Assembly (NCBI GenBank): GCA_038229875.1 | Contig: JBBROA010000003.1 | Location: forward strand, 1,465-65,464 | DNA: 64,000 bases | Reading direction: 5' to 3' | From: Thermoanaerobaculia bacterium | Lineage (GTDB): Bacteria; Acidobacteriota; Thermoanaerobaculia; UBA5066; Gp7-AA6 | Shown here: positions 1-13,965 of the stretch, one piece after another | Layout: each line of letters opens with the position of its first letter | Position numbering within the stretch: position 1 is the first letter of the stretch | Program-made: the position numbers and the translations under genes | The notes under the pieces: generated by a model | The model's input: the letters and a program-made list of their open reading frames with translations, nothing else | Database searches by the model: none | Told to the model about the DNA's origin: nothing

Positions 1-746
1 TACCTGCGGTTGACCTCCACGTTGGTGGGAAACAGATCGGAGTTGATTGCGCGGATGGGGGCCTTGATCTCGCGCAGCGCCGGCAGCGGGTCGTAGGTCA
101 CGCTGGAGCGGGCGGAGGCCACGCCAATCTCCTGCGGCACCGACAGCGCCGTTTCCAGTACGCGCGCCTTGACGGGCTCGGGCGTGCTCGCCGAGAAAAG
201 GAGTTGCGACATGTAGGCGGTGAGGTTGGCCCGGTAGTTGGCCTGCAGCTCCGACAGGGACTTCTCCAACTCCTCAGCCGCGGGCCTCTTCTGCTCGAAG
301 TCCACCAGCGTGTCCACGAGCACCAGGCCCGCCACCCGGCCCGGCATACGGCGCGCGGCCTCCAGGACTACAGGCCCGCCAATGGAGTGGCCGATGAGCA
401 CCACGCGCTTCAAGCCCAGCGTCTCGACCACCGACACCACGTCCTGGCCGAAAGCGGGCATCGTCCAGTCCTTGCGCCCGACTCCGCTCTGGCCGTGGCC
501 GGCCAGGTCGAGCGCGACCACGCGGTGCTTCGCGGCGAAGTGGGCCACCTGCCCGTCCCAGAAGCCCCGCTCGCAACCCCCGCAGTGGACGAACACCAGG
601 GCCGGATCGCCCTTGCCGGCCGCGTGATAGCGGATGGGGATCCCGTCCGGCGACGTGGCGGTGCCGGAAACGGCCCCCTGGGAGCCGGCCCTGGCCGGCG
701 GCAACAGTGCCACGAGGGCGATGGCTAGGCCGAGTGTCATCTTCAT
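1..746 (-). CDS. secreted alpha/beta-fold hydrolase, 3' end beyond window start
   Basis: Own minus-strand translation: AAGGAGG then ATG at 746; MKMTLGLAIALVALLPPARA signal peptide; VFVHCGG, LDLAGHGQS and LIGHSIGG nucleophile-elbow motifs; absent from ORF track because no stop lies inside the window. Confidence 0.75.
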   Translation of the reverse strand, partial: MKMTLGLAIALVALLPPARAGSQGAVSGTATSPDGIPIRYHAAGKGDPALVFVHCGGCERGFWDGQVAHFAAKHRVVALDLAGHGQSGVGRKDWTMPAFGQDVVSVVETLGLKRVVLIGHSIGGPVVLEAARRMPGRVAGLVLVDTLVDFEQKRPAAEELEKSLSELQANYRANLTAYMSQLLFSASTPEPVKARVLETALSVPQEIGVASARSSVTYDPLPALREIKAPIRAINSDLFPTNVEVNRR

Positions 747-830
747 CGAATCCTCCTTCGCCTCAGCGTACAACCGCGCCGAAGACAGCACTCCCCGAAG
801 CTCGCGCACACCCCCATCCGCGTCTGGTCC

Positions 831-900
831 GCCTAACGTTCCAAAGCTCAGCGGCGGCAGCGGGGTAGCCGAGGGCGTCCGCTGCAGCGCGATGTTAGGC
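831..900 (-). repeat. attC site 1 (70 bp)
   Basis: GCCTAAC-N56-GTTAGGC imperfect palindrome with GCTCAG/CTGCAG L boxes; variant centre. Confidence 0.85.
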
Positions 901-1236
901 GGCATCACCGACCGCGGCTCTTCGGCCTCTTCCCAGTAGCCAACCGAAGCCGACTCCGGCGAGTACCGCTACCCCCCAGGGCAGTGCGACTGCGAACGGC
1001 CCTACGTCAATCCATGCGTGACGCAGCCCTTCGGGATTGCGTGACTCCACCATCGTGCGCAGGATCAAAGCGGAGACAGGTAGGCCTCCGAAAAACGCAA
1101 TATCCACGGTTACCCTGACCGCCAGATTCGAAAAGCGGAGGCGAAGCCACGCCAAAACGCAGGAGCATAACGACAGTAGAACCGTGTCGAGCGCGACAGC
1201 CCGCCAGAGCGACCCGCTGATGTCGAGAGGTGTCAC
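895..1236 (-). CDS. cassette ORF, small integral membrane protein (113 aa)
   Basis: ORF track; several hydrophobic helices; stop is the TAA of the attC R'' box; GTG start only 8 nt after upstream attC, so true start is uncertain. Confidence 0.55.
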   Translation of the reverse strand: MTPLDISGSLWRAVALDTVLLSLCSCVLAWLRLRFSNLAVRVTVDIAFFGGLPVSALILRTMVESRNPEGLRHAWIDVGPFAVALPWGVAVLAGVGFGWLLGRGRRAAVGDAA

Positions 1237-1244
1237 TTGGTGCC

Positions 1245-1314
1245 GCCTAACGTCTCAAAGCTCAGCCGCGGCGACGGCGAAGCCGGCGACGTCGGCTGCA
1301 GCGCGATGTTAGGC
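1245..1314 (-). repeat. attC site 2 (70 bp, consensus type)
   Basis: GCCTAACGTCTCAAAGCTCAGCCGCGGCGACGGCGAAGCCGGCGACGTCGGCTGCAGCGCGATGTTAGGC. Confidence 0.9.
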
Positions 1315-1674
1315 GTCAGGCGCATCCGTCGCATCTGCCGGAACCTCAGAAAGGACGGCCCGTGCATCGCCTTCTTCGTCCCGATCCACCTGAAGAAGTA
1401 TGGGACCGATCGTGATGTTGAACCCTGCCCCGACCCTCCCCGCGCCGAAAAGATCCTGCAGGCCGTCACCCTTAACCCAGTAATCAACTCCGGCTGAATC
1501 CAGCAGAGACTTTGCCATCTCCATCCGAATCGGATCTCCGGTCGCGAGGACCGTCACAATCTCGAGTGGCGGAGGCTCAGGCGGTGTGGGCGGCGGCTCG
1601 ACCAACGCCACATCGCAATCCGCGCAGCGGACGATTCCGGACTGGTACTCGTCACCGCAGCTTGGGCAGATCAT
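1309..1674 (-). CDS. cassette ORF, zinc-ribbon plus DUF2007-like protein (121 aa)
   Basis: CPSCGDEY..RCADCDV CxxC pairs, then IVTVLATGDPIRMEMAKSLLDSAGVDYWVKG resembling the DUF2007 fold; stop in attC R'' TAA. Confidence 0.65.
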   Translation of the reverse strand: MICPSCGDEYQSGIVRCADCDVALVEPPPTPPEPPPLEIVTVLATGDPIRMEMAKSLLDSAGVDYWVKGDGLQDLFGAGRVGAGFNITIGPILLQVDRDEEGDARAVLSEVPADATDAPDA

Positions 1675-1697
1675 TCCGGGCAGATAACCCTTCTGAC

Positions 1698-1767
1698 GCC
1701 TAACGTCCCAAAGCTCAGCCGCGGCGACGGCGAAGCCGGCGACGTCGGCTGCAGCGCGATGTTAGGC
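1698..1767 (-). repeat. attC site 3 (70 bp, consensus type)
   Basis: One mismatch to attC 2; GCCTAAC..GTTAGGC cores. Confidence 0.9.
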
Positions 1768-1776
1768 CGCTGCGCG

Positions 1777-2169
1777 TTACTCATTCCAATGGAACTCGGC
1801 CGTGTCGCCAGCAAAGACGATGAAGGAGTTCGTGTTGCTGATGAAAAGGTAGTGACAAAACGCATTCTCGGGCAAGCCGGCTGGCATCGCCAGCGTCGTA
1901 CTTGCGCGTGGGTCAGGGAAAGGGCCGTCCGAGGTGACCCAGAGCCCTAGTGGCAATTCCTGTTGATAGAGTTTACAGGGTGTTTCGGTTGCAAACGAGT
2001 GGAGGCCACGTACCTCCAAATTGCCGCGCTGAAACACCAAGTCGCTGCCCCTGACCCCGATAGGCACTGCCATGGCAAACCGGGCGCGCCGATTCGCGAA
2101 ATCGATCGCCACTGACTCGATCTGCGAGTGCCTCTGGATATCGATCGCCAAGAAGGGCATCGAGCTCAA
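1777..2169 (-). CDS. cassette ORF, hypothetical protein (130 aa)
   Basis: Only sizeable ORF filling cassette 1768-2199 in array orientation; no family recognised. Confidence 0.5.
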   Translation of the reverse strand: MSSMPFLAIDIQRHSQIESVAIDFANRRARFAMAVPIGVRGSDLVFQRGNLEVRGLHSFATETPCKLYQQELPLGLWVTSDGPFPDPRASTTLAMPAGLPENAFCHYLFISNTNSFIVFAGDTAEFHWNE

Positions 2170-2199
2170 GAGTTTTCGTGACGGCAGGCAACTTCAGCG

Positions 2200-2269
2200 G
2201 CCTAACGTCTCAAAGCTCAGCGGCGACGGCGGCGAAGCCGGCGACGTCCGCTGCAGCGCGATGTTAGGC
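2200..2269 (-). repeat. attC site 4 (70 bp)
   Basis: GCCTAAC..GTTAGGC; CAGCGG/CCGCTG stem variant shared with the other ORF-less cassettes. Confidence 0.9.
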
Positions 2270-2441
2270 GGTGCGCAGATTTGTAGGCCAGGACCAGACT
2301 CTCGCCACCTGGCCGCCCGAGGCGGCCCCTCTCCGACGCGTGGAGACTTCAGCCCTCTCCCGGCGGTATCCGCGATCACACCGCACCCTTGACCCTTGCG
2401 GCCGGCTGCCCAAGCCTCGATGCTGAAGACGACTCGCAACC
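2270..2441 (-). other. ORF-less 172-bp integron cassette, copy A of 4
   Basis: Aligns without indels to 8150-8321, 8392-8563 and 9018-9189; no conserved ORF; substitutions show no codon periodicity. Confidence 0.75.
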
Positions 2442-2511
2442 GCCTAACGGTCGGCGGCTCAGCGGCGACGGCGGCGAAGCCGACGGCGTCCGCTGCAGCC
2501 GCGGGTTAGGC
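2442..2511 (-). repeat. attC site 5 (70 bp, type 2)
   Basis: GCCTAACGGTCGGCGGCTCAGCGGCGACGGCGGCGAAGCCGACGGCGTCCGCTGCAGCCGCGGGTTAGGC. Confidence 0.9.
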
Positions 2512-2515
2512 CGCA

Positions 2516-3439
2516 TCAATATCCGTCCCAGGCGGCCCGTGTCCATCGTCCAAAACCGCGGTGGCTGTCTATCGCCGCAAGAGCGCGACCTGAGCTTGTA
2601 GACGGAAAGTGAAGACTTCTGGATACCGTTTGGTTGCCATCCACGTAGATGTCCTGCCGAACCCAACTGTTGCTTTCGTAGTGCAAATGAACCGCTGCGA
2701 ACTGTTCCGGGTAGCCGATACTCGGCCAGCGCACTGCAGGGGCGGTTATATAGTCCTCGACAGGAAAGCTGCTCGGTATTCCGTACCAGGGTCGTAAGTG
2801 AATTCCAGCGCCATAGAAACGGCCGCCGTTGATGGGCGGGTTGCTCCCCACGAACTCGTTTGCCACTACCCAGTCGCCGCCGCGGGCGGCATCCACGCTC
2901 AGAGATTGCAGCTGGCCGTCCGGGGAGTAGGTCGCCGCGAAAACGGCAACCCCTGGGTGGGCCCGCACGATCCTCACCAGGCTGACAGCGACCAGCTGGG
3001 CGGCCGATTCGGCCGGGACGGTCGCCGTCAGGGTCGGGAGGTCTGAGCTCACCAGCTTCGAATAGCTGTTGACTTCAAAACCGGTCGCCTGACCTCGGTA
3101 CCTGGAATCGTAGAAGTAGGTCGATTTCGCATAGACCGAACCGAATTCGCCACGAAGGAGCTCTTCGTTCTTACCTCGTTCAATCAAGCGGTATTGACGG
3201 TCCGTGAGGAAGGAGTTTCTGAGAGGGTACCTGCCACCCGTTTCCGCGCCGTATTCTGCGATCTGATGACCGGATAAAGCGAGATCGTCTCGGAATCCCT
3301 CTCGCAGTTGATTGCCAGAGGATTGAATCCGATCATGCATGACGAGGGTTGCTGTGGTCGAATCGATCGAAACGGAGCGGTACCACCCACCTGGACCGAC
3401 TCGACAGGCGAGAAGAACAACCGAGACCAAGAGACACAT
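2516..3439 (-). CDS. cassette ORF, putative lipoprotein or secreted protein (307 aa)
   Basis: Track ORF 2516..3577 trimmed to first in-cassette ATG (MCLLVSVVLLAC...); the frame stays open through upstream attC to ATG 3577. Confidence 0.6.
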   Translation of the reverse strand: MCLLVSVVLLACRVGPGGWYRSVSIDSTTATLVMHDRIQSSGNQLREGFRDDLALSGHQIAEYGAETGGRYPLRNSFLTDRQYRLIERGKNEELLRGEFGSVYAKSTYFYDSRYRGQATGFEVNSYSKLVSSDLPTLTATVPAESAAQLVAVSLVRIVRAHPGVAVFAATYSPDGQLQSLSVDAARGGDWVVANEFVGSNPPINGGRFYGAGIHLRPWYGIPSSFPVEDYITAPAVRWPSIGYPEQFAAVHLHYESNSWVRQDIYVDGNQTVSRSLHFPSTSSGRALAAIDSHRGFGRWTRAAWDGY

Positions 3440-3484
3440 CGCCGAGGGCGCGGGCAGGTGCCGGCTCTGTTGATTGTCCGTGCG

Positions 3485-3554
3485 GCCTAACGGCTGGCGG
3501 CTCAGCGGCGACGGCGGCGAAGCCGACGGCGTCCGCTGCAGCCGCGGGTTAGGC
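3485..3554 (-). repeat. attC site 6 (70 bp, type 2)
   Basis: Near-identical to attC 5. Confidence 0.9.
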
Positions 3555-3573
3555 CGCCTTGCCAACCCGAGGT

Positions 3574-3825
3574 TCATGGCTCTCCCCGAAAGCGACGCTG
3601 GGCGCTTCGAGCGCTTAGAAAAGCGCCAACCGCATAAAGCATGGCCCAGACTAAGTCGCCTCTGACGTTCTGCCGAGTGAGTGCCGGGCTAAAAAGCTTT
3701 CTGCTGTTCATCAGAAATGGTATCGCGTCGCACACCAGCAGAATTGCTGCAATCGCCAACACTACGGAGAGCGCCAGCATGCCGATCGCGACCAGCCGGC
3801 CGGAGAACTCGAGGTTTGGTTTCAT
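3574..3825 (-). CDS. cassette ORF, small 2-TM membrane protein (83 aa)
   Basis: ORF track; two hydrophobic helices (LVAIGMLALSVVLAIAAILLV; LVWAMLYAVGAFL). Confidence 0.55.
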   Translation of the reverse strand: MKPNLEFSGRLVAIGMLALSVVLAIAAILLVCDAIPFLMNSRKLFSPALTRQNVRGDLVWAMLYAVGAFLSARSAQRRFRGEP

Positions 3826-3848
3826 ACGGCGAGGGATCGCTCCTGGCG

Positions 3849-3918
3849 GCCTAACGTCCCAAAGCTCAGCCGCGGCGGCGGCGAAGCCGACGACGTCGGC
3901 TGCAGCGCGATGTTAGGC
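3849..3918 (-). repeat. attC site 7 (70 bp)
   Basis: GCCTAAC..GTTAGGC, consensus type with CGGCGGCGGCGAAGCCGACGACG centre. Confidence 0.9.
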
Positions 3919-3925
3919 GTCACGC

Positions 3926-4300
3926 TTACCATGTCCCGTCAGTTGAAATGATGACGTTGAGATCACCTGATTCAAGGAATTGGAAGCTCGCCGGTTGCGG
4001 CTCGAGAAAAGGATCGATCAGCTCCGCGACCTGAGCCAAACCCTCTCGATCCTGCACCCAGCGGAACTCATGGGTGCCGATCCGCCTTACCCCCGGCCGC
4101 CCTTCAACGTTTGTCATCATCAGCGCGCAACCATTCTTGCCGGTGACGCCGGGAAGTTCTCCGGCCAAGATTTCTTGATCGCGCTCAGCCGACAGACGAC
4201 TCGCCGCGTCACGAAGAGCTGCCACGCTCTGGGGTTCGAGGTCGCTAATCAGGATGGCAGGCGTATCCGCGCAGCGTTTCGAAATGAACTCAAGCGTCAT
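3926..4300 (-). CDS. cassette ORF, hypothetical cytoplasmic protein (124 aa)
   Basis: Fills cassette 3919-4314 in array orientation; no family recognised. Confidence 0.55.
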   Translation of the reverse strand: MTLEFISKRCADTPAILISDLEPQSVAALRDAASRLSAERDQEILAGELPGVTGKNGCALMMTNVEGRPGVRRIGTHEFRWVQDREGLAQVAELIDPFLEPQPASFQFLESGDLNVIISTDGTW

Positions 4301-4314
4301 GGGACCTTCGTGAC

Positions 4315-4384
4315 GCCTAACGTCACAAAGCTCAGCCGCGGCGACGGCGAAGCCGGCGACGTCGGCTGCAGCGCGATGTTAGGC
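4315..4384 (-). repeat. attC site 8 (70 bp)
   Basis: Consensus type. Confidence 0.9.
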
Positions 4385-4756
4385 CGCGGCAGTTTCACGT
4401 TGCTGTCTCCGATGTCGCTCGATCAGGTGACGGGTTCCAACGATCATCAAATAGAGGGCCACCGCCCAAATGACCAACTCGACAAAGGTTGCCAGCGCTA
4501 GGTACTTGCCGTTCGCTTCGTAGTGCGACAGATCGAAGCGAAATCCGAAGACTCGAAGAACGCGAGCCGCAAGCATGCTGGGACTCCAGCGCGAAAGACT
4601 CTGAACCCAACTGGGAGCTGGGCCCGCGAGGTACAGCGCGAATCGATGCTCGGGGTCGAGCCGTGCTGATGCAAGCAGCCAGAGGTAGTCCCATGCCGCG
4701 GCCGCGACCAAACAGGCTCCAGCCAGCCTCCATCCGGACGTCCTTCTAAAGCCCAT
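4379..4756 (-). CDS. cassette ORF, membrane protein (125 aa)
   Basis: ORF track; hydrophobic segments; stop in attC R'' TAA. Confidence 0.55.
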   Translation of the reverse strand: MGFRRTSGWRLAGACLVAAAAWDYLWLLASARLDPEHRFALYLAGPAPSWVQSLSRWSPSMLAARVLRVFGFRFDLSHYEANGKYLALATFVELVIWAVALYLMIVGTRHLIERHRRQQRETAAA

Positions 4757-4772
4757 CAGAAAACCTTCCGCG

Positions 4773-4842
4773 GCCTAACGTCCCAAAGCTCAGCCGCGGC
4801 GACGGCAACGCCGGCGACGTCGGCTGCAGCGCGATGTTAGGC
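4773..4842 (-). repeat. attC site 9 (70 bp)
   Basis: Consensus type. Confidence 0.9.
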
Positions 4843-5253
4843 CGGGGCATGAGTACTTCCTCTTTGGGGCTCGCCGGGTTCAACCGAAACCGAGACTCGT
4901 TGCGCCTCCAGGAACCCAGCAATGCCGTAGCACGGGTACAGGGTCACCCGAACTGCCTTTTCACTCACCTCGCATCCAAGACCAAAGATCGCGTTTTGAG
5001 TGCTGAAGTCGGCCAACTCTAGGTCCAAAACTCTCTCAAACGAGAACGTTACAACCGCGTGCCGATCAAGAACAAAACAGCCGGCCGCATTGATCTCCTC
5101 GGTCATGCGCCAAACATGAAGGCGCAGCCTTGATTGGCCTTCGCGACGCAGACTGAGTTCCAGCACTTCAGCATCATGGAAACTGGGCCAGCCGCCGAAC
5201 CACTCGACCAGCTGCTTCGCCCCGGGGATCGACGGCGCAAGAAGATCAGCCAT
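4837..5253 (-). CDS. cassette ORF, Imm50-like immunity protein (138 aa)
   Basis: LVEWFGGWPSFHDAEVLELSL... and ...VVTFSFERVLDLELADFSTQNAIFGL match my memory of the Imm50 (polymorphic-toxin immunity) signature; stop in attC R'' TAA. Confidence 0.6.
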   Translation of the reverse strand: MADLLAPSIPGAKQLVEWFGGWPSFHDAEVLELSLRREGQSRLRLHVWRMTEEINAAGCFVLDRHAVVTFSFERVLDLELADFSTQNAIFGLGCEVSEKAVRVTLYPCYGIAGFLEAQRVSVSVEPGEPQRGSTHAPA

Positions 5254-5263
5254 AACTTCCGCG

Positions 5264-5333
5264 GCCTAACGGCTTAGCGCTCAGCCGCGGCGGCGGCGGA
5301 GCCGACGACGTCGGCTGCAGCGCGATGTTAGGC
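5264..5333 (-). repeat. attC site 10 (70 bp)
   Basis: GCCTAACGGCTTAGCGCTCAGCCG...GTTAGGC. Confidence 0.9.
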
Positions 5334-5765
5334 ACCGGCCGTCTCCGCTGAATCTGCGTCGGAAATGATGTAGTGAGAAAGGTCAATGCCGATACCAAGG
5401 TTGCCTGCGAGGGCGAGAAGAGGCGCAGGGAGCTGGTCAGTCTGAGCGACGACATCTTCCCAGGCAAGCCCAAAGTCGAGGACCGACCCTTCGACCCCCG
5501 GGAAACTTACGATCCTCCGCAACTCAGCCGCGTGTTGCTCCAGAAATTGGACGGCATCTGTCACCGACCGGTCGAACTCGTGGAAATCTCGATCGGACAC
5601 GTCGAAATGAGCGCACGACACCTCGAAATGAGCGCCCTTCCTCTCGAAGATTCGCTGACGCCGCAGCTCGCCTCTTCGATCGACCCTGTACGGTTCGAGT
5701 GCTGTGAGCTTCGCGAGTTCGTCCACCGCTAGCTCGTGTCCCCACACTCTGAGAATGCAGGTCAT
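5328..5765 (-). CDS. cassette ORF, DUF4279-like protein (145 aa)
   Basis: N-terminal CILRVWGHELAVDELAKLTALEPYRVDRRGE pattern is typical of DUF4279; stop in attC R'' TAA. Confidence 0.5.
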   Translation of the reverse strand: MTCILRVWGHELAVDELAKLTALEPYRVDRRGELRRQRIFERKGAHFEVSCAHFDVSDRDFHEFDRSVTDAVQFLEQHAAELRRIVSFPGVEGSVLDFGLAWEDVVAQTDQLPAPLLALAGNLGIGIDLSHYIISDADSAETAGA

Positions 5766-5779
5766 AGGCTCCTTCCGGT

Positions 5780-5855
5780 GCCTAACGGCCTGCGCGTCAG
5801 CGGCGAGTGAGGAGGCGAAGCCGACGAACGAGTCCGCTGCACGCGCGTGTTAGGC
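5780..5855 (-). repeat. attC site 11 (76 bp, divergent centre)
   Basis: GCCTAACGGCCTGCGCGTCAGCGG...CCGCTGCACGCGCGTGTTAGGC. Confidence 0.8.
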
Positions 5856-5898
5856 CACGGCGCAACGTGGTCCGTGAGCGAGCAGGGCTTCCGGTCCG

Positions 5899-6198
5899 TC
5901 ATTCGCCTTCTACCACTGTTGCTACCCCGGTTGTCGTATTCACACGGACCAGCCAGTGATAGCCGGGTCGCGCGAACTTCTTCGTGCCCTGAATAAGAAA
6001 CTCCCAGTGAGCGGGGCTACCCGCTGCTTGCTTTACCGAGTACGTCTTCACGGTTTGCTTCGTGTACTTCAGAAATGCCTCCTCGGCAATTCGTCGGGCA
6101 TCTCTGGCGTCGGGAGGCCAGTGCGCCGCCGATGGTGTAGGTGTTGGCTGCGAGGCGATCGGCGTCGCGACCACTGGGGCGATCTGGAACAGCCCCAA
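5899..6198 (-). CDS. cassette ORF, small exported protein; start unresolved
   Basis: Track ORF 5899..6300 crosses attC 12; no in-cassette ATG, first alternative is TTG at 6198; hydrophobic IGAVVLLGLFQIAPVVA follows the attC-encoded stretch. Confidence 0.45.
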   Translation of the reverse strand: MGLFQIAPVVATPIASQPTPTPSAAHWPPDARDARRIAEEAFLKYTKQTVKTYSVKQAAGSPAHWEFLIQGTKKFARPGYHWLVRVNTTTGVATVVEGE

Positions 6199-6228
6199 GA
6201 GAACGACCGCACCTATACGACTTCCGTG

Positions 6229-6289
6229 GCCTAACGGCTTGCGGCTCAGCGGCGCCCGCGAGGGCGTCCGCTGCAGCCGCGGGTTAGGC
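6229..6289 (-). repeat. attC site 12 (61 bp, short type)
   Basis: GCCTAACGGCTTGCGGCTCAGCGGCGCCCGCGAGGGCGTCCGCTGCAGCCGCGGGTTAGGC. Confidence 0.85.
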
Positions 6290-6296
6290 GGCTGGC

Positions 6297-7019
6297 TCAC
6301 CGTCGCCCCGCCTTTCGGAAAGCGATCTGGAAGACTTCACTTACAAGCCAAGATCGTAGGTGCGTCCCGGCCAGCCTGTCCTTTTGGCCGAACCTGGTCG
6401 GTGCAAGCGACGCCAAGGCCCGGCCAATGTCGGGCTCATAGGTCTGATAAGTCGTGCCGGACCGGCTTACCTTCCAAGGAATCATGAAGGCCTGTTGAGC
6501 AGAGGACGAGAGACTCACCGTCGTTCCGTCGGCAAGGCCCACCACCGCGGACACGTGAGGGTAGTCATCAGTCCACCAGTGTCCTGGGGCGTAGTACTCA
6601 TCCAGAAGTCGGGAAATCAGTTCCACATCAGCTCGGGCGGCCTCGAATTCTTCCCGAACTCGCGGTGCCGCGTAAGTTGAATATAGCGCGTGGTGTACAC
6701 CACTATTCGCGATCCGAATATCCTGCGGCGTAGCCGTCTGAAGCCAGGAAACGAGGTCCGCGAGATCGCTTCCATGAAATTGCGGCTTCGGCGCTGTCTT
6801 CAAGCCTCGTAGCAATAGAGCCACAGCCTCCGAGCACTCCGCATGGTCACAGGCGACCGTGTATTCAGCGGGGTCGGGCGGAGTTGGGGTCGGACACGAG
6901 TCGTCTCCGCCCGCCGGCCGCGTTTCGATCACGCTAAGACCTTGCCAAGATGACGCGACGTGGATCCTGATCTGCTGGCTAGCAGATTGCGAGATCGCGT
7001 TGGCGGTTGACAAGGCCAT
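6297..7019 (-). CDS. cassette ORF, hypothetical exported protein (240 aa from ATG 7019)
   Basis: Track ORF 6297..7331 trimmed to first in-cassette ATG; the frame is open across attC 13 to ATG 7145. Confidence 0.55.
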   Translation of the reverse strand: MALSTANAISQSASQQIRIHVASSWQGLSVIETRPAGGDDSCPTPTPPDPAEYTVACDHAECSEAVALLLRGLKTAPKPQFHGSDLADLVSWLQTATPQDIRIANSGVHHALYSTYAAPRVREEFEAARADVELISRLLDEYYAPGHWWTDDYPHVSAVVGLADGTTVSLSSSAQQAFMIPWKVSRSGTTYQTYEPDIGRALASLAPTRFGQKDRLAGTHLRSWLVSEVFQIAFRKAGRR

Positions 7020-7061
7020 TGCAAGGCCCGTTGCGAGAGCAATCCCATGACTCGTGTGGCC

Positions 7062-7131
7062 GCCTAACGTCCCAAAGCTCAGCCGCGGCGACGGCGAAGC
7101 CGGCGACGTCGGCTGCAGCGCGATGTTAGGC
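7062..7131 (-). repeat. attC site 13 (70 bp)
   Basis: Consensus type. Confidence 0.9.
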
Positions 7132-7137
7132 CGAGCG

Positions 7138-7584
7138 CTACCCATGTGGCTCCCACATCCGAGCGATCGCCTTCGCCAACATCGGCGGCAAGCAATCACG
7201 GGCCGCGCAGAATTGTGGCTGGGTTGAGACCCATTCCACGCGAGCCCCATTTCGAAACCTGAGAAGGGCTCGAGCTGCCCGAGGTGGTTGTGCGACGCAG
7301 TCCACGCAGATGACGCAGGGCTCCGGTTCATATCGGATCACCACGTCCGCCTGGTCCGACGTGGGTGCCAGACTAGCTCCAGGCGACCATTTCAGAAGCC
7401 ACGGTCTGATCTGCTCAGCCGTATATGCGGCTGCCCAGCATTTCCCGTCCTCCACGAAGAACGATCGCGTTCGCGAGGAAGGAGGAAGAGGATGGGTTAG
7501 AGGAATTGGTCGATACGGTATGCAGCCGCTAAGGGCCGCCACGGCGGCCAGCCCGAAGACAAAGCAGTAAGGCGCCTTCGCTCG
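7138..7584 (-). CDS. cassette ORF, putative lipoprotein; start unresolved
   Basis: Track ORF 7138..7668 crosses attC 14; lipobox-like FGLAAVAALSGC just after the attC; no ATG inside the cassette. Confidence 0.5.
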   Translation of the reverse strand, partial: RAKAPYCFVFGLAAVAALSGCIPYRPIPLTHPLPPSSRTRSFFVEDGKCWAAAYTAEQIRPWLLKWSPGASLAPTSDQADVVIRYEPEPCVICVDCVAQPPRAARALLRFRNGARVEWVSTQPQFCAARDCLPPMLAKAIARMWEPHG

Positions 7585-7645
7585 GCCTAACGGATTTCGC
7601 TTCAGCGGCGAGCGCAAGCGAGTCCGCTGCAAGCGTGTGTTAGAC
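7585..7645 (-). repeat. attC site 14 (61 bp, short type, R' = GTTAGAC)
   Basis: GCCTAACGGATTTCGCTTCAGCGG...CCGCTGCAAGCGTGTGTTAGAC; stem changes are compensatory relative to the other attCs. Confidence 0.8.
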
Positions 7646-7657
7646 GGCGCCCGCCGT

Positions 7658-8062
7658 TCACGGGCCATACGTTGCCTGCGGCCAAACGAAGAGGAGAAAT
7701 AAGTAGCACGAGGCCGTCACCACCAAAGGGCCACGGAGGCTACGATGCGTCACCGTGGAGAGGGCCAGAGTAACTCCCGCGACGAGCAGAAAGAGGGCGG
7801 CATTTAAGGCGACCTCAACGGCGAGTATCGCGCCGAACGCCAGGACGGTCGTGCCTGTTAGCGCGACGAGGATCCCGCGTGAGTTCCAGAACAGGGCTTG
7901 CGCAAGGCGAGTGCCGAATCCGTGCCCGCCGAACAGGAAAGACTCTTCCGCTGGATGCAAGAGGAAAGTGCTGAGCGACACCAGAAGCGTTACAACTAGA
8001 AAGAAGCGGGCGGTTCTCGTGCCTGCTCGGCGAGCGCCGGAGGCAATTGTTTCAATGGTCAC
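7658..8062 (-). CDS. cassette ORF, multi-TM membrane protein (134 aa)
   Basis: ORF track; four hydrophobic helices. Confidence 0.55.
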   Translation of the reverse strand: MTIETIASGARRAGTRTARFFLVVTLLVSLSTFLLHPAEESFLFGGHGFGTRLAQALFWNSRGILVALTGTTVLAFGAILAVEVALNAALFLLVAGVTLALSTVTHRSLRGPLVVTASCYLFLLFVWPQATYGP

Positions 8063-8079
8063 GCCTGCGCCTTAGCGCC

Positions 8080-8149
8080 GCCTAACGTCTCAAAGCTCAG
8101 CGGCTCGCGCAGCGGAGCGGAGCGAGTCCGCTGCAGCGCGATGTTAGGC
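8080..8149 (-). repeat. attC site 15 (70 bp, private centre CTCGCGCAGCGGAGCGGAGCGAG)
   Basis: Same centre as attC 16 and 18, all of which belong to ORF-less cassettes. Confidence 0.9.
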
Positions 8150-8321
8150 GGTGCGCAGATTTGTAGGCCAGGACCGGACTCTCGCCGCCTGGCCACCCGA
8201 AGCGGCTCCTCTCCGACGCGTGGAAACTTGAGCCCTCTTCCGGCGGTATCGGTGATCACGCGGCACCTTCGAACCTTGCGGCCGGCTGGCCGAGCCTTGA
8301 GGCTGAAGATGACTCGCAGCC
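8150..8321 (-). other. ORF-less 172-bp integron cassette, copy B
   Basis: See copy A; indel-free alignment. Confidence 0.75.
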
Positions 8322-8391
8322 GCCTAACGTCCCAAAGCTCAGCGGCTCGCGCAGCGGAGCGGAGCGAGTCCGCTGCAGCGCGATGTTAGGC
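8322..8391 (-). repeat. attC site 16 (70 bp)
   Basis: Same private centre as attC 15 and 18. Confidence 0.9.
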
Positions 8392-8563
8392 GGTGCGCAG
8401 ATTTGCAGGACCGGACCAGACTCTCGCCGCTTGGCGGCCCGAAGTGGCTCCTCTCCGACGCGTGGAGACTTGAGCCCTCTCCCGCCGTCATCCGTGATCA
8501 TGCCGCACCTTTGACCCTTGCGGCCGGCTCCCCAAACCTTGATGCTGAAGACAAGTCGCAGCC
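8392..8563 (-). other. ORF-less 172-bp integron cassette, copy C
   Basis: See copy A. Confidence 0.75.
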
Positions 8564-8633
8564 GCCTAACGTCTCAAAGCTCAGCCGCGGCGGCGGCGAA
8601 GCCGACGACGTCGGCTGCAGCGCGATGTTAGGC
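8564..8633 (-). repeat. attC site 17 (70 bp)
   Basis: Consensus type. Confidence 0.9.
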
Positions 8634-8640
8634 CGCACGC

Positions 8641-8916
8641 CTACCATGCGAGCGCATGTCCCCGGATGAATCGCCAGAAGTAAACGGGCTCCGCAAAAGG
8701 ACCTAACAGAAAAATCGTCCAGAACCAGATCCGTTCCCTACCAGCTGGCACGCGGGAATTCTGCCGGATGTCCCAAAGATAAAAGAGCCATAAGCCAAAC
8801 TCGACAAGGACAAAACCAAACAGCGCCGCGCCGGGGATATCGACATCTGTGACGGCGAGAAGGAACGCGATCGGGATCTGCCCGAATGTCGCCAAGCCGA
8901 TCAGTGCCTTGCCCAT
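8641..8916 (-). CDS. cassette ORF, PLDc_N-like small membrane protein (91 aa)
   Basis: LFYLWDIRQNSRVPAGRERIWFWTIFLLGPFAEPVYFW resembles the PLD-nuclease N-terminal membrane domain. Confidence 0.55.
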   Translation of the reverse strand: MGKALIGLATFGQIPIAFLLAVTDVDIPGAALFGFVLVEFGLWLFYLWDIRQNSRVPAGRERIWFWTIFLLGPFAEPVYFWRFIRGHALAW

Positions 8917-8947
8917 ATCCCTATCGCCGACTGCGTCGCTTCGTGCG

Positions 8948-9017
8948 GCCTAACGTCCCAAAGCTCAGCGGCTCGCGCAGCGGAGCGGAGCGAGTCCGCT
9001 GCAGCGCGATGTTAGGC
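8948..9017 (-). repeat. attC site 18 (70 bp)
   Basis: Identical to attC 16. Confidence 0.9.
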
Positions 9018-9189
9018 GGTGCGCAGATTGGAAGCCTAGGACCGGACTCTCGCCGCACAGCCCCCCGAAGCGGCTCCTCTGCGACGCGTGGAGACTTGAG
9101 GCCTCTCCCGGCGGTATCCGTGATCACGCCTCACCCTTTAACCTTGCGGTCGGACGGCCAAGCCTCGACGCTGAAGGCAACTCGCAGCC
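9018..9189 (-). other. ORF-less 172-bp integron cassette, copy D
   Basis: See copy A. Confidence 0.75.
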
Positions 9190-9259
9190 GCCTAACGTCC
9201 CAAAGCTCAGCCGCGGCGGCGGCGAAGCCGACGACGTCGGCTGCAGCGCGATGTTAGGC
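9190..9259 (-). repeat. attC site 19 (70 bp)
   Basis: Consensus type. Confidence 0.9.
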
Positions 9260-9511
9260 GGCCGAGGCAAGCAGTGCTCCTAGCGCCATCCGGCCGAAGT
9301 TGGCCAACTGCGCCTCCGAAAACTCGAAGCGTCTTGCCTGGGCCGCATCCACATCGGCGAACGTGATGAAGACGTCGTGTTCCCATTTCCGTGCGGCCGA
9401 GTCCGCCAAGGTGACCATGTCGAGGGTGAGTTCGAGGGTTCCACCCATCGGTCTGACCGAAATGCACAGCCCTCGCCCACCCCGAATGCCGTCGTCCTTC
9501 GCACGTGCCAT
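9254..9511 (-). CDS. first cassette ORF, hypothetical protein (85 aa)
   Basis: Track ORF 9254..9556 trimmed to ATG 9511 behind AGGAGG (GTTAGGCGTCCAAAGATAGGAGGTCGCATG); stop in attC R'' TAA. Confidence 0.5.
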   Translation of the reverse strand: MARAKDDGIRGGRGLCISVRPMGGTLELTLDMVTLADSAARKWEHDVFITFADVDAAQARRFEFSEAQLANFGRMALGALLASAA

Positions 9512-9531
9512 GCGACCTCCTATCTTTGGAC

Positions 9532-9747
9532 GCCTAACATGTATTAGACCGCCCAATGCTGGCCGCCAACGCTGCGCAACGCGCTCCCCAATTCTTCCTC
9601 GCCGCTTCCTTCATTCGCACGAGATCTCTCTTCCTCTCACCATGTTGAGACTCCGGCAACCCTCTCGCGGTTCCCCCGTTAGCGAACCAAAACTGTCGCC
9701 TAACGTCCCTGCGAGCAGCAGCGGATTGGGAAATGGTGCTCATGGCC
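9532..9747 (-). other. intI-to-array junction containing candidate attI
   Basis: Minus strand has GTTAGGC cores at 9538-9532 and 9704-9698. GTTGCGC (9580-9574) and GTTGGCG (9570-9564) half-site-like repeats lie upstream of the 9538 core. Confidence 0.4.
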
Positions 9748-10755
9748 TCACAGGTTGTCCGCCGGGCTGCGGATGCCTCGGCCGCCGGTCCGATTCAAGA
9801 CGTGTGTGTAGATCATCGTTGTTTTGACGTCGGCGTGGCCCAGGAGCTCCTGGATGGTCCGGATATCGTAACCGTCTTCGAGCAGGTGGGTCGCGAAAGA
9901 GTGTCGCAGGGTGTGGCAGTGGACCGGTTTCTTGATGCCCGCGTCCCGTACGGCCTGGGCGAACGCCCTCTGCACGACGCTTTCATGCAAGTGATGGCGT
10001 CGCTCGACTTGTGTGCGCGGGTCGCGGCTTCGCTTTTCCGCCGGGAAGAGCCATTGCCATCCCCAATCGCGATCCGCGCCCGGGTACTTTCTCGCGAGCG
10101 CATCCGGAAGGTAGACGTCCCCGAAACCCTCCTCCAGGTCTTTCTCGTGCAGGCGCTTGACCGCCGACATCCAGGAGGCGAGCGGCGTCATCAGGGACTC
10201 GGGTAACGGCACCGGTCGGTCCCGGCCTCCTTTCGCTTCGCGCACCGTGATCCGGTGGAAGGCGTACTCCACGTCTTTGATCCGGAGCCGCAGGCACTCG
10301 AGCAGGCGCATTCCGCTTCCGTAGAGCAGCAGACAGATGACCCGCGGGTTTCCGGACAGGCGACCCACGATCGACCGGACCTCGGCGCGGGTGAGACCGG
10401 CCGGCTTCGTCCGGGGGCGTTGGGCGCGCACGACGTGGTCGAGAGGGCCGACCGGAGTCTCGAGCACGTGCCGGTATACGAACAGGATTGCGGCGAGCGC
10501 CTGGTTCTGCGTCGACGCGCTCACGCCGTGGGTCACCGCGAGGTCGAAGAGGAACGCGTTGATCTCCTGCTCCCCCATTTCCTTCGGATGCCGCTTGCCG
10601 TGGAAAAGGATATAGCGGCGGATCCAGCCGACGTAGGCCTCCTCGGTTCGGAGGCTGTAGTGGCGCGCCCGGATCGCGATCCGGACACGGTCGAGGAAGC
10701 GCGGCGGGCGCTGCGCGGAGTCGGGAGTCGGCCACGGCCCGGAGATCGTCGTCAT
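9748..10755 (-). CDS. intI: integron integrase (tyrosine recombinase)
   Basis: 335 aa; [36 protein letters not shown], IntI-specific insert [48 protein letters not shown] (R-H-R-Y). Confidence 0.95.
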
Positions 10756-10761
10756 CGCTTC

Positions 10762-11229
10762 TTACTTCTTGTCGCTGGCCAATCGGGAGGAGTGGCGCGG
10801 CGCAACCGTTCGCCCCGGACGATCCCCCTCACCTCCTCCCCGAGCGCGGGGAGAGGGAGAAAGTCCGCGGTCCGCCTCGACATAGCCCTCTCCGCGGGCG
10901 CGGGGAGAGGAGGAAGTTCCTGGAGCTTTGCGACGGGTCAGCGCGACGCCGGATAGGCCGGTTTTCTTTTCGAGCAGCCGCCGCTTCTGGACGGCATCGA
11001 GCATCTGCTGCGCGATGTAGAAGTCCGCGGACTTCTGCGTGCCGAGCGCTTCGATCGCTTTCAGCGTCGCTTCCGCGCGCGTCAGGTTTGGGTTTTCAGT
11101 CAGGAGATCGCGGATCACGTTCGAGAGCAGGGTTCGGTTCTGCCCGAACCCTCCCTGTCCGAGTGTCCGGACCGCTTCCAGCAGTTCTTTGAATGCGATG
11201 GCGAGAACCTGTCCTTCCCACCCGGTCAT
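10762..11229 (-). CDS. hypothetical protein orf155 between imuB and intI
   Basis: AAGGAG then ATG at 11229; helical-looking N-terminal 90 aa; C-terminal third is translation of two GC-rich palindromic repeats, so the true stop and function are uncertain. Confidence 0.45.
   Translation of the reverse strand: MTGWEGQVLAIAFKELLEAVRTLGQGGFGQNRTLLSNVIRDLLTENPNLTRAEATLKAIEALGTQKSADFYIAQQMLDAVQKRRLLEKKTGLSGVALTRRKAPGTSSSPRARGEGYVEADRGLSPSPRARGGGEGDRPGRTVAPRHSSRLASDKK
10836..10853. repeat. GC-rich palindromic REP-like element
   Basis: CTCCCCG-AGCG-CGGGGAG. Confidence 0.5.
10887..10910. repeat. GC-rich palindromic REP-like element
   Basis: CCTCTCCGCGGGCGCGGGGAGAGG. Confidence 0.5.
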
Positions 11230-11263
11230 GGCGAGACTCCTTATTGGGGTTAACACGTGTGAC

Positions 11264-12973
11264 TCAGTCATAGAGACCGTCCGCGAACCAGCTCTCGCCC
11301 CGCCGGTCGCGGAAGATTCGATACAGGCCGCCGTCGGACAGCTCGACGTCCCAGTAGTCGCGCTCCGCCGGAGAGTCCGACCACCAGCCTTCCTCGAGAG
11401 ACCACGGGCCGGCGGCGACGCGCACTGTCCCCTGGATGTCGAGAGAGGAGCCGGGCGCGGACTTGATCGACAGGAGACGCGGCGACCGCGTCTGAGAGAT
11501 CGGGACGACGACGGCGGCGGCGGCGGCGCGCCGGCCCTCTCCGTTCCCCGCCGCGGAAACCGCTGCAGCCTGGGCGGACGCGCGTCGGTTGCGGCTCTCG
11601 CCGGCGGCAACGGTGAGAGGCAACGGGGTCCGGACGGCGGCGGCGGGAGGAGTCGGCGTCTCGGCGGTTAAGACCTCGAGCGCGATCGGCGGCCGCAGCA
11701 CCCGCACCGCGAGAAGTCCGCGGCCGCGCCTGGGTGTGCGCGCGATCTCGGGCGGCGCCGGCGGCGCGTAGGAGGCGAGCGCGTACCGCTCCGGGCGGTG
11801 GCCGTCCACCGTGCGCGGAGATCCGACGCGGTCGGCGCCGAGCATCGAGGCGAGGCGCGCGATCGTCGTCGCGAGGCGGTCCGGCGACAGCGCGGCCGGT
11901 CCGAAGAGCGAGAGCTGCGCGCGCCGCGGCTTGTCCGGATGCGCGGAGAACGAGAACCCTGCGACCGCGGCGCCGGGCGGCCTCGCTTCGAGCTCGAGCC
12001 GCAGGAGCGTCAAGAGCGTCTTGACATCGCGGGTCGGCGCCGGCAGCGAGATCCCGCGCGCATCCACGCCCTCGGGATCGAGCTTCAGCGTCACCTCGAG
12101 CCGCGTGCACGCCAGCGCCTGCGATTCCAGCCGCGCGACGAGACGCTCGAGCGCTGCGTGCCCGACGAAGAGGAACGGCTCGAGAGTCACGAGCGGCCAC
12201 TCGAGGTCCATCCCCTCCGACAGCACGAGCGCGGGGACGCGCGGCTCGAGCGGACGCGGGTCGAACCCGCGCGCGGTCGCGTGGAGCTCGCGTCCGAGCT
12301 CGCCCAGGCGGCTGGCGACTTCTCCCTCCGGCAGGCGCGCGAGCTCGCCGATCGAGTCGATTCCCCACTGCGTCAGTCGTGCGCCGATCTCCATCGCGGG
12401 AGCGAGCCGGTCGAGCGGCAGGGGGGCCAGGAACTTCGCCTCGTCTCCCTCCGGCACGACCTTCGGCGAATCGGGAAGCGACGCCGCCACGCGGGCCGCG
12501 AGCTTCGAGCCCGCGATCCCGACGCGCGCCGGAAGACCGGAGGCTTCGACCGCGGCGATCAGGCGCTGGCCGAGGAGCGACTCGGCGCGTTCCGCGGACA
12601 CGCCGTCCTTCGGAGAGAGACCGGGCAGACCGTCGAGGTCGAGGTACACCGAGCCCTCCCCCGCGTCCTCGACGCGAGGCGAGAACGAGTCGGCGATCTC
12701 GAGAAGCGCCTCCTGAGCCGCGCGCTCGCTTTCCGCGTCGCGGCCGCGCGCGACCAGCTTCGGGACGATCGCGCGGGACTGCGGGAGCGTCATCCCCTGG
12801 CGGATCCCCGCGCGGCGCGCCGGACGGGACGCCGCGATCACGCGCGCCGCGTTCCCGTTGCCCTCGAAGATCGCGACCGGCTCCCCCTTCAGCTCCGGCT
12901 CGCTGCGCAGTCTCGCCGCGAGAGAGAAGAGAGGGACATCGAGGCAGGCGATGCGGGCGCGGGGACGCGTCAT
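11264..12973 (-). CDS. imuB: ImuB, Y-family polymerase-like mutagenesis protein
   Basis: Track ORF 11264..13909 trimmed to MTRPRARIACLDVPLFSLAARLR...; typical ImuB N-terminus and YWDVEL...YRIF C-terminus; ATGA overlap with the imuA stop. Confidence 0.85.
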   Translation of the reverse strand: MTRPRARIACLDVPLFSLAARLRSEPELKGEPVAIFEGNGNAARVIAASRPARRAGIRQGMTLPQSRAIVPKLVARGRDAESERAAQEALLEIADSFSPRVEDAGEGSVYLDLDGLPGLSPKDGVSAERAESLLGQRLIAAVEASGLPARVGIAGSKLAARVAASLPDSPKVVPEGDEAKFLAPLPLDRLAPAMEIGARLTQWGIDSIGELARLPEGEVASRLGELGRELHATARGFDPRPLEPRVPALVLSEGMDLEWPLVTLEPFLFVGHAALERLVARLESQALACTRLEVTLKLDPEGVDARGISLPAPTRDVKTLLTLLRLELEARPPGAAVAGFSFSAHPDKPRRAQLSLFGPAALSPDRLATTIARLASMLGADRVGSPRTVDGHRPERYALASYAPPAPPEIARTPRRGRGLLAVRVLRPPIALEVLTAETPTPPAAAVRTPLPLTVAAGESRNRRASAQAAAVSAAGNGEGRRAAAAAVVVPISQTRSPRLLSIKSAPGSSLDIQGTVRVAAGPWSLEEGWWSDSPAERDYWDVELSDGGLYRIFRDRRGESWFADGLYD

Positions 12974-13899
12974 GCCGAGTCGCGGATCGGGACGAGGAGG
13001 GCGGAGACGGCGCGCTCCGGGCTCCCTGCCGCCCTCTCCCCCGGCGCGCGGGGAGAGACGGGTGGCACGGGAGTGAGCGAAGACGCGGGCTCCGGGGCAG
13101 ACGTAAGGGAAAGCGAAAGCGAAAGCGCGCCGCGCGAATCCGGGGGCGGCGCCTGCCCGACGCGAAGCGAGAGCGGGACAGAAGTGCCGGGGGTCTCGCG
13201 CCCGAACTTGTCGAGCGAGACACGGGACGAGATCCCCTCGAGAAGACGCGGCGATTTTCCCGAGCCGAGCCACGCCGGGCGCGCGACGTTGGTTCCGAGA
13301 ACCGCTTCCGCCGCGATCCCCGTCATCCGCCACGGCGTCACGACGAGCAGGCACGCGCCCTGGGCCTGGGCGGCGCGGGCGAGGCGCACCCAGGCGGCAT
13401 CGGGCAGGTACCGCGCGCCACGAGGCGAGAGGCCGAGGTCGGCGACGACGAGCGGGAATCCCGCCGAGAGAAGCATCTCCGCGCAAGCGAGCGCGGACTT
13501 GAGCCGCGTCGGGCGGACCCACAGGAGCCGCGCGAGGTCGATCCCGGCGCGCCCGGCCGCTTCCGGATCCAGGTGATCGCCGAGGTCGACGAGCGCGGCC
13601 GGCTCTCCCGCGGAAGTTGCGGAGGCAAGCGCCGCGAGCGCGAGCGAGTGGCGACCGGAGGAGCGGCGGCCGACGAGCTCGACGAGCTTCCCTTTCGGAA
13701 GGCCTCCTAAGAGCCGCTCGATCGGGGCGTGCGCGTTGGCGGCGGACCCGGCAACCGGAGCGGCCGAACGCGCGGGAGGGGCGAGCTCCGAGGCGCGGGT
13801 CAGCCGGGCCGAGGTGCCGCTCAGGAGCGAGCCGCGCTTTGCCGTCGTCAGCGCGCCTGCCCGGAGGAGCTGCTCGAGGGCGATTCGCGAGGCGCTCAT
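12970..13899 (-). CDS. imuA: ImuA, RecA-fold SOS mutagenesis protein
   Basis: Track ORF 12970..14181 trimmed to MSASRIALEQLL...; GGLPKGKLVELVGRRSSGRHSLALAALA degenerate Walker-A typical of ImuA. Confidence 0.8.
   Translation of the reverse strand: MSASRIALEQLLRAGALTTAKRGSLLSGTSARLTRASELAPPARSAAPVAGSAANAHAPIERLLGGLPKGKLVELVGRRSSGRHSLALAALASATSAGEPAALVDLGDHLDPEAAGRAGIDLARLLWVRPTRLKSALACAEMLLSAGFPLVVADLGLSPRGARYLPDAAWVRLARAAQAQGACLLVVTPWRMTGIAAEAVLGTNVARPAWLGSGKSPRLLEGISSRVSLDKFGRETPGTSVPLSLRVGQAPPPDSRGALSLSLSLTSAPEPASSLTPVPPVSPRAPGERAAGSPERAVSALLVPIRDSA
13034..13057. repeat. GC-rich palindromic REP-like element inside imuA 3' tail
   Basis: CTCTCCCCCGGCGCGCGGGGAGAG. Confidence 0.5.
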
Positions 13900-13936
13900 G
13901 CCGCCACACCTTTCTCCGGCGGAGAGCCGGAAAAGG

Positions 13937-13965
13937 AAGATAGGCGTAAAAAAGGCGTAAATCAA
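13937..13965 (-). promoter_or_regulatory. candidate imuA promoter with direct repeat in spacer
   Basis: Minus strand TTGATT-N17-TATCTT about 40 nt upstream of the imuA ATG; spacer holds TTTACGCC twice, 11 bp apart. Confidence 0.3.

Follow-up and report, generated by a model that had tools for sequence, protein, structure and literature searches.

Integron integrase genes in the place of dnaE2 behind imuA-imuB in Thermoanaerobaculia: a possible coupling of mutagenesis and cassette recombination through gene order

In the genome of a Thermoanaerobaculia bacterium, the gene for an integron integrase, intI, stands behind the mutagenesis genes imuA and imuB. The stretch of 64,000 nucleotides (nt) analyzed here, hereafter the window (GCA_038229875.1, contig JBBROA010000003.1, positions 1,465-65,464), encodes on its minus strand, in this order and all in the same orientation, an SOS-type promoter, imuA, imuB, a small gene denoted orf155, intI, the attI site and at least 19 cassettes. 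An integrase that is predicted to lack a LexA box of its own, ends an imuAB gene string, takes the place of dnaE2 and points into the cassette array is a new arrangement, solidly supported by comparison of at least 31 species-level genomes. We propose, with a rough probability of 0.45, that this clade has fused two stress-induced evolvability systems: a single LexA-controlled direct-repeat promoter would serve ImuA and ImuB, the integrase and possibly the first cassettes, dnaE2 would have been given a duplicate of that promoter, and control would be exerted through operon architecture.

An integron behind imuA and imuB

Gene coordinates were obtained by direct reading of the letters of the minus strand, and those previously given for imuA, imuB, orf155 and intI in an annotation made from these letters alone (the sequence-only reading) all match (Table 1). 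The imuA stop and the imuB start share an ATGA overlap. The imuA product matches the Pfam RecA profile (53 bits) and, weakly, the NF033429 ImuA_translesion model (39 bits, cutoff 150). It is 45-95% identical to the imuA products of related loci and 45-60% identical to those of canonical imuA-imuB-dnaE2 loci; the orthologue in L357 (L-numbers are labels of the fetched comparison loci) has precomputed RecA_N and MT3502_N matches. The orthology to the canonical loci and the MT3502_N match support the assignment of this gene as imuA. ImuB is a Y-family IMS protein (84 bits in the profile search) that scores below every curated DinB and UmuC cutoff. In the alignment, S101-L-D103-E104 of DinB corresponds to G-E-G-S of ImuB, with the catalytic D103 and E104 replaced by G and S, and ImuB is, by this alignment, a catalytically dead homologue of Y-family polymerases. 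It is also longer than DinB (569 against 351 amino acids), with a C-terminal extension of 200 amino acids, and contains a clamp-type motif, QLSLF (within RRAQLSLFGP), which was recognized by eye, without a model.

The IntI protein matches the TIGR02249 integron integrase model over model positions 1-315 (455.9 bits, cutoff 265) and aligns over its full length with VchIntIA (2a3v; 304 bits). The latter alignment covers the integron-specific insert (patches II-III) and the catalytic R, K, HxxR, H and Tyr, with the motifs RRHHLHE, GMRLLE, KGG, HTLRHSF, GH and IYTHV, the last of which contains the Tyr. By these matches, intI is an intact integron integrase gene.

The approximately 215 nt 3' of the intI stop are conserved among related loci and end in the attI simple site GGTCTAA-TACAT-G/TTAGGC at 9550-9532, the GTCTAA...GTTAGGC core of which is invariant in the alignment with five related loci; an extra GTTAGGC is found in the attI region at 9704-9698. 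Between 9259 and 831, 19 attC sites of the form GCCTAAC...GTTAGGC, about 61-76 nt each and homogeneous within the array, were identified using the repeat families D1, D3 and D5 and the regular expression RYYYAAC..GTTRRRY. The cassette open reading frames (ORFs) are on the minus strand, starting 10-20 nt past one attC and stopping inside the next, in agreement with the sequence-only reading, which had placed the array downstream of intI on the same strand. The G+C content (GC) of the array is 60-64%, against about 67% in the rest of the window. With intI, attI and attC-bounded cassettes, the locus has the sequence features of a complete integron. Because intI is transcribed towards attI and the cassettes, the arrangement is that of an "inverted" integron. 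We read the locus as a sedentary chromosomal integron of this type, the integrase gene of which closes the string of genes that begins with imuA and imuB.

A cassette of about 242 bp without a convincing ORF is repeated, in tandem sets, at 2182-2518, 8062-8640 and 8930-9266, with the attC starts of the copies exactly 242 nt apart; this could be a duplicated, ORF-less regulatory or promoter cassette. An Rfam gathering scan of the window returned no match. Together with the intact gene, the duplicated 242-bp cassettes are indirect signs that IntI may be active in recombination on attI and attC.

Table 1. Features of the imuA-imuB-intI locus (window positions)
Feature	Position	Strand	Basis and details
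SOS-type promoter with embedded operator	13937..13965	-	sequence reading and conservation across imuA loci
imuA	12970..13899	-	ATG 13899, TGA 12970; RecA fold
imuB (569 aa)	11264..12973	-	ATG 12973, TGA 11266-11264; IMS domain
orf155	10762..11229	-	ATG 11229, TAA 10764-10762; core 11229-10945, tail 10944-10762
intI (335 aa)	9748..10755	-	ATG 10755, TGA 9748; TIGR02249
attI region	9532..9747	-	alignment with five related loci
Cassette array	1..9537	-	19 attC sites; continues past the window end

Conservation and single origin of the imuB-intI link

Among the GTDB species representatives, the seven closest relatives of the window IntI (64-67% identity) come from metagenome-assembled genomes (MAGs) of Acidobacteriota/Thermoanaerobaculia, and in all seven imuA-imuB lie upstream on the same strand. 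For a broader survey, 80 loci obtained in an ImuB-based search, and the window, were classified by the same-strand gene 3' of imuB. That gene is intI, mostly within 2.7 kb, in 31 loci, dnaE2 in 17 and neither in 13; these 61 loci are the informative ones, the contig being too short for a call in a further 20. The order imuA-imuB-(0-4 small genes)-intI-array is thus found in 31 of the 61 informative Thermoanaerobaculia ImuB loci, which disposes of the possibility, allowed for in the sequence-only reading, that the adjacency is unique and unconserved. The same reading had intI sitting in the slot of dnaE2, and this is borne out by the sister lineages, which carry dnaE2 there; in L128, for example, the gene 3' of imuB is a dnaE2 with PHP, pol III alpha, finger, HHH_6 and OB domains.

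In a neighbor-joining tree of ImuB, all the loci linked to intI group together in one clade, which contains none of the dnaE2-linked loci. The ImuB and IntI distances are correlated (Mantel r=0.67, with none of 2000 permutations as high). According to the tree and these distances, imuB and intI became linked on a single occasion and have since been passed on together. Eight loci inside the clade (seven in the tree, and L159, at clade-level ImuB identity) have no integron, and these look like secondary losses because no attC sites were found in the loci with neither gene inside the clade.

In L099 (7601-7762) and L148 (7795-8055), only fragments of intI directly follow imuB, corresponding to residues 5-57 and 63-150, respectively, which suggests integrase decay in some lineages.

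Two further loci place an integrase beside imu genes. In an Acidobacteriota MAG (L009, 1-16975), imuB-dnaE2, intI and an attC array follow one another on the same strand, with 2.9 kb between dnaE2 and intI. In a MAG labeled as a delta proteobacterium (L036, 8001-13720), intI precedes imuB-dnaE2 by 92 nt on the same strand; no imuA was detected at this locus, and the intI-imuB intergenic region contains TTGACC and the direct repeat AAGGCGA-N4-AAGGCGA, a promoter built in the same way as that of imuA in the window, around another repeat. These loci hint that the association may recur. In a Nitrospinota MAG (L027, 7076-7357), an ORF resembling the N-terminal DNA-binding part of LexA lies about 650 nt 5' of intI.

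Relocation of dnaE2

All ORFs in the window are too short for dnaE2, and the longest ORFs that were checked have unrelated Pfam domains or none. The lack of a dnaE2-sized ORF fits a position of dnaE2 beyond the array. A DnaE2 search detected dnaE2 in many of the same MAGs, and in five contigs that contain both loci, dnaE2 is 3' of imuAB-intI in the same orientation, 44-110 kb away (about 93 kb from intI in CAWCPN01 c2, 61 kb in CAWERV01 c10, 44 kb in CAWJYL01 c2, 109 kb in CAVXRK01 c8 and 55 kb in CAVUAN01 c6). The sequence-only reading had recommended that dnaE2 be located elsewhere in this genome; the gene was found in related linked genomes and not in the window itself. The regional order imuAB-intI-array...dnaE2 is conserved.

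A copy of the imuA promoter lies about 200 nt 5' of the separated dnaE2 and belongs to this gene alone; the loci with the order imuA-imuB-dnaE2 have just one copy, 5' of imuA. The 4 kb 5' of the separated dnaE2 contain conserved STAS-like and GNAT genes and no attC sites. A simple model of integron insertion between imuB and dnaE2 is too simple, because core genes, not cassettes, adjoin dnaE2 upstream, and a clean insertion is accordingly weakened as an origin of the split.

The imuB-intI gap and transcription of intI

The spacing of imuA, imuB, orf155 and intI is operon-like. An AAGGAG at 11242-11237 precedes the orf155 start codon by 7 nt, and only 6 nt (GAAGCG) separate the orf155 stop from the intI start. 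The window contains a single copy of the operator embedded in the imuA promoter, 5' of imuA; with up to two mismatches allowed, the interval from imuB to intI is free of copies both in the window and in every linked locus. A relaxed scan for sigma-70-like sites (at least 8 of 12 positions) on the minus strand between 9400 and 14161 detected none besides the imuA promoter. A default promoter and terminator scan returned no promoter at all, missing that of imuA as well because only 8 of its 12 positions match, and no more terminator-like sites than expected from shuffled sequences. Among integrons that are not linked to imuAB, the Acidobacteriota locus L014 carries, about 45 nt 5' of its intI, a sequence that agrees with the operator at 17 of 18 positions, and L020 has a weaker match 5' of intI. 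A single damage-induced transcript running from imuA to intI thus appears rather more probable than separate transcription, and it is probably a single stress-controlled promoter that governs point mutagenesis as well as gene shuffling.

Codons 1-95 of orf155 are conserved, with a coding-like GC by codon position (0.66/0.40/0.77 for positions 1/2/3) and a third-position substitution bias. The last 60 or so codons show no such bias, are variable in the alignment and have a noncoding-like GC (0.73/0.73/0.63); this tail crosses GC-rich hairpin repeats and ends at the intI junction, and by these signs it is a variable low-complexity spacer that stays in frame by chance. The gene could be placed in no family: the search detected ten homologues, each of them a hypothetical protein that lacks Pfam domains. 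The AlphaFold model shows four helices with a mean predicted local distance difference test (pLDDT) score of 59.5, and below 50 in the tail, so that the core is, with modest confidence, a conserved four-helix protein. In L357 and L358, the homologue has 128 amino acids and its TGA overlaps the intI ATG (ATGA); in L083 and L084, about 100-160 nt separate the homologue from intI.

Across the linked loci, the imuB-intI gap ranges from 9 nt to 5.6 kb and contains 0-4 small co-oriented genes, namely, orf155 homologues, MarC, RHH-PIN pairs, BrnT-BrnA pairs and GNAT. The possibility that these are integron cassettes was rejected, as no attC sites were found between imuB and intI. The strands of the gap genes are strongly biased (49 "+" against 6 "-"), and the last intergenic distance 5' of intI is mostly 10-95 nt.

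Several observations weigh against a transcript that always runs from the imuA promoter into intI. The approximately 185 nt between the orf155 core and intI are unconserved and rich in GC hairpins, which could attenuate transcription or conceal a non-consensus promoter; RNA folding of this spacer gave an energy equal to that of shuffled sequences (z = 0.08), leaving a structured attenuator unsupported. The 6-nt distance between orf155 and intI is not a conserved constraint, because the orf155 tail is unconserved and the relatives differ. Toxin-antitoxin genes usually carry their own promoters, and because toxin-antitoxin pairs are present in the gap of relatives, and genes on the opposite strand in that of L101, strict co-transcription from the imuA promoter is not universally kept. 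Finally, whichever gene comes before intI, the start of intI shows a conserved element of about 25 nt, TCGCGACAA-N10-13-ATG. It is present in the window (10753-10779, minus strand, as the variant CAGCGACAAGAAGTAAGAAGCGATG) and in L092, L096, L097, L100, L102, L112, L114, L117, L118, L153 and L154. Traveling with intI, it might act as a separate regulatory site; for a standard promoter, it is not long enough and lies too near the start codon. The sequence-only reading had found no room for a dedicated intI promoter or LexA operator. This holds for the 6-nt gap, the operator copies and the sigma-70-like sites, and fails for the variable spacer. Likewise, its description of intI as hard-wired behind imuB captures the conserved adjacency and overstates the tie in those relatives where toxin-antitoxin, MarC or GNAT genes fill up to 2.6 kb between the two.

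The same observations bear on an alternative that we regard as less likely, in which the synteny reflects descent only, intI is expressed from a promoter of its own, unrecognized or belonging to a toxin-antitoxin pair, and there is no coupling to the SOS response. A gap of variable length and content, a start element independent of the upstream gene and an orf155 tail that is unconserved spacer are all compatible with such a history. The eight loci inside the clade that lost the integron show that the link is dispensable, and some of the upstream neighbors of imuA are also conserved within subclades, as in ordinary synteny. Descent alone, however, does not call for gap genes that are overwhelmingly co-oriented and tightly packed, with ATGA overlaps with intI, nor for the lack of a sigma-70-like site before intI in the window. 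Moreover, the separated dnaE2 kept or gained its own SOS promoter, but intI did not; where intI is unlinked, as in L014, the operator stands directly before it; and the associations in L009 and L036 (imuB-dnaE2-intI-array and intI-imuB-dnaE2) are independent of the one in this clade.

The imuA promoter and a candidate SOS regulon

The imuA promoter of the window, TTGATTTACGCCTTTTTTACGCCTATCTT (13965-13937), consists of a -35 element, TTGATT (13965-13960), and a -10 element, TATCTT (13942-13937), separated by 17 nt. The spacer accommodates a direct repeat of TTACGCC (13960-13954 and 13949-13943) interrupted by TTTT. In its class-wide form, TTGAC-TTACGCC-N4-TTACGCC-TAnnnT, the promoter is found 5' of imuA in nearly all of the about 80 fetched ImuB loci and 5' of dnaE2 wherever the latter is separated from imuB. 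The sequence-only reading had advised a search of the stretch upstream of imuA (13900-14161) with the host LexA motif, and it is this direct-repeat promoter that comparative genomics uncovered there.

Exact matches to TTGACTTACGCCNNNNTTACGCC were sought in 185,579 species genomes; the at least 119 sites returned are confined to Acidobacteriota, and 117 of them were sorted by the gene 3' of the site. These genes are imuA-imuB (43 sites), a gene for an XRE-type helix-turn-helix (HTH) protein (34), dnaE2 (16), lexA (11), a radical-SAM gene of unconfirmed family (1) and a DNA methylase (1), with the remaining 11 unidentified or truncated. No recA or lexA was found in the fetched Thermoanaerobaculia loci with the Escherichia coli queries, lexA surfacing later in the genome-wide promoter scan. 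The lexA genes at these sites encode full LexA proteins, with the LexA_DNA_bind and Peptidase_S24 domains, a VAAG cleavage site and the catalytic Ser and Lys. The imuA operator is thus common to lexA, dnaE2 and imuA across the class, as in members of an SOS regulon. Because the promoter precedes lexA as well as imuAB and dnaE2, we read TTACGCC-N4-TTACGCC as the candidate SOS box of the class, most likely a LexA operator. An autoregulated lexA together with imuAB and dnaE2 makes up an SOS-type regulon (PMC3323433, PMC8565304).

In Thermoanaerobaculia, a conserved, GC-rich leader of about 100 nt, caggccgatggg...ccgcggtggtccctcggcctaat, lies between the promoter and the ribosome-binding site of lexA; seen in L256, L262, L294, L319 and L327, about 20-120 nt past the promoter, it may be a structured RNA element.

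Of single genes, the XRE-type gene is found most often behind the exact promoter (L269, L270, L286, L305, L310 and about 29 other loci). It is monocistronic and encodes an HTH_3/XRE protein of 155-170 amino acids (MRTPILNGLGQALRWLRDRQGKKQYQVA...), which may be a second damage-response regulator in the class. A role in a system of the DdrO/IrrE type was rejected, as no gene for an IrrE-type protease adjoins the XRE gene.

This XRE-type regulator, whose own gene stands behind the promoter, is a second candidate for the protein that binds there. No recA is present among the sampled promoter sites. In another explanation, to which we give a low probability, the repeat would serve as the operator of the XRE protein or be needed by an alternative sigma factor, and the regulon would respond to a signal other than RecA/LexA. 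The XRE sites do outnumber those of lexA (34 against 11 of 117), and LexA usually binds palindromes, whereas this motif is a direct repeat. Still, autoregulation of lexA is the hallmark of an SOS box, and here full-length LexA genes carry the promoter, while the XRE gene stands alone, without an adjacent IrrE-type protease. The other genes behind the promoter, imuA-imuB, dnaE2 and the radical-SAM gene, are mostly of the SOS type (PMC8565304, PMC3323433). The repeat has a period of 11 bp. In 2006, Mazon et al. reportedly described a direct repeat of the same 11-bp period, GTTC-N7-GTTC, as the site to which LexA binds in Alphaproteobacteria and in Acidobacterium capsulatum, an analogy that would agree with binding of LexA to the repeat found here.

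A model for coupled induction

In an ancestor of this Thermoanaerobaculia clade, the integron came, once, to follow imuB in place of dnaE2. If LexA binds the repeat, the following course of events can be envisaged in the descendants. DNA damage would activate RecA, LexA would cleave itself and the imuA promoter would be derepressed, giving rise to a polycistronic imuA-imuB-orf155-intI transcript that may extend into attI and the first cassettes; factors of error-prone synthesis and cassette recombination would therefore be induced together. We infer LexA binding, read-through to intI and the activity of the integrase from sequence comparison.

That the junction is an assembly or binning chimera of an integron contig and an imuAB contig has a negligible probability and is refuted by conservation: the window is metagenomic and an exact look-up of its IntI sequence found no record elsewhere, but over 30 MAGs obtained independently in different studies contain the same junction, some of them in long-read contigs of 2-4 Mb, and the proteins on both of its sides are 87-94% identical in close relatives. 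The imuB-orf-intI junction of the independent MAGs L083, L084, L357 and L358 likewise excludes the assembly join that the sequence-only reading had considered.

Genes upstream of imuA

Two genes on the plus strand lie between a TetR gene and the imuA promoter: one for a TIR_2-domain protein (14162-15196) and one for a protein with two transmembrane segments (2TM; 15348-16604) that has a weak SLATT_1 match. In the syntenic locus L357, TetR is directly divergent from imuA, and the pair therefore looks like an inserted two-gene module of the defense type.

Comparison with known systems and implications

In class 1 and Vibrio integrons, the promoter of intI carries a LexA box that places the gene under SOS control (Guerin et al. 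2009; Cambray et al. 2011, PMC3108266). The locus described here resembles these in that the integrase would be under the DNA-damage response, as a candidate coupling, and cassette recombination would increase under stress. The architecture is different: in class 1 and Vibrio integrons, the LexA box overlaps the intI promoter itself and intI is divergent from the cassettes, whereas here no operator lies within 3 kb of intI except at the imuA promoter, and intI is downstream of imuA-imuB, pointing into the array.

The passages of PMC3323433 that summarize Abella 2004 and Erill 2006 describe imuA-imuB-dnaE2 as a LexA-regulated mutagenesis cassette, the regulation of which persists where the cassette is present. 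The overlapping imuA and imuB behind a damage-type promoter common to lexA are shared with that cassette, and the sister lineages keep its canonical order. Unlike in the cassette, dnaE2 is 44-110 kb downstream with a duplicated promoter, and small genes and intI are in its slot.

"Inverted" integrons, in which intI is co-directional with the cassettes, are known, for example, from Treponema denticola (PMC3607928; Cury et al. 2016, PMC4889954). As in that species, intI has the direction of the cassettes and attI lies past its 3' end; here, however, the phylum is different and the position behind SOS genes is fixed. Sedentary chromosomal integrons co-evolve with their hosts at a fixed locus in Vibrio and Xanthomonas (bioRxiv 10.1101/2025.06.18.660453). 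The integron of Thermoanaerobaculia is likewise chromosomal, vertically inherited and lineage-wide, with co-diverging ImuB and IntI and homogeneous attC sites, but its fixed neighbor is an evolvability module of the same stress regulon. In a full-text literature search, no description of a linkage between imuA/imuB and an integron was found.

The view of integrons as a means of "adaptation on demand" rests on SOS induction of their integrases. To our knowledge, all earlier cases of such induction depend on a LexA box in the promoter of the integrase gene and come from Proteobacteria or from mobile integrons. Acidobacteriota are an abundant and poorly studied phylum of soil bacteria. If the proposed coupling is true, the principle of SOS-controlled integrons would extend to this phylum by a different genetic route, with integrase expression tied to error-prone DNA synthesis through gene order. 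The imuAB-intI order persists through roughly 40% protein divergence. A candidate SOS regulon for Thermoanaerobaculia is a further outcome of the analysis, and the relocated dnaE2 would be a natural example of promoter duplication after the split of an operon.

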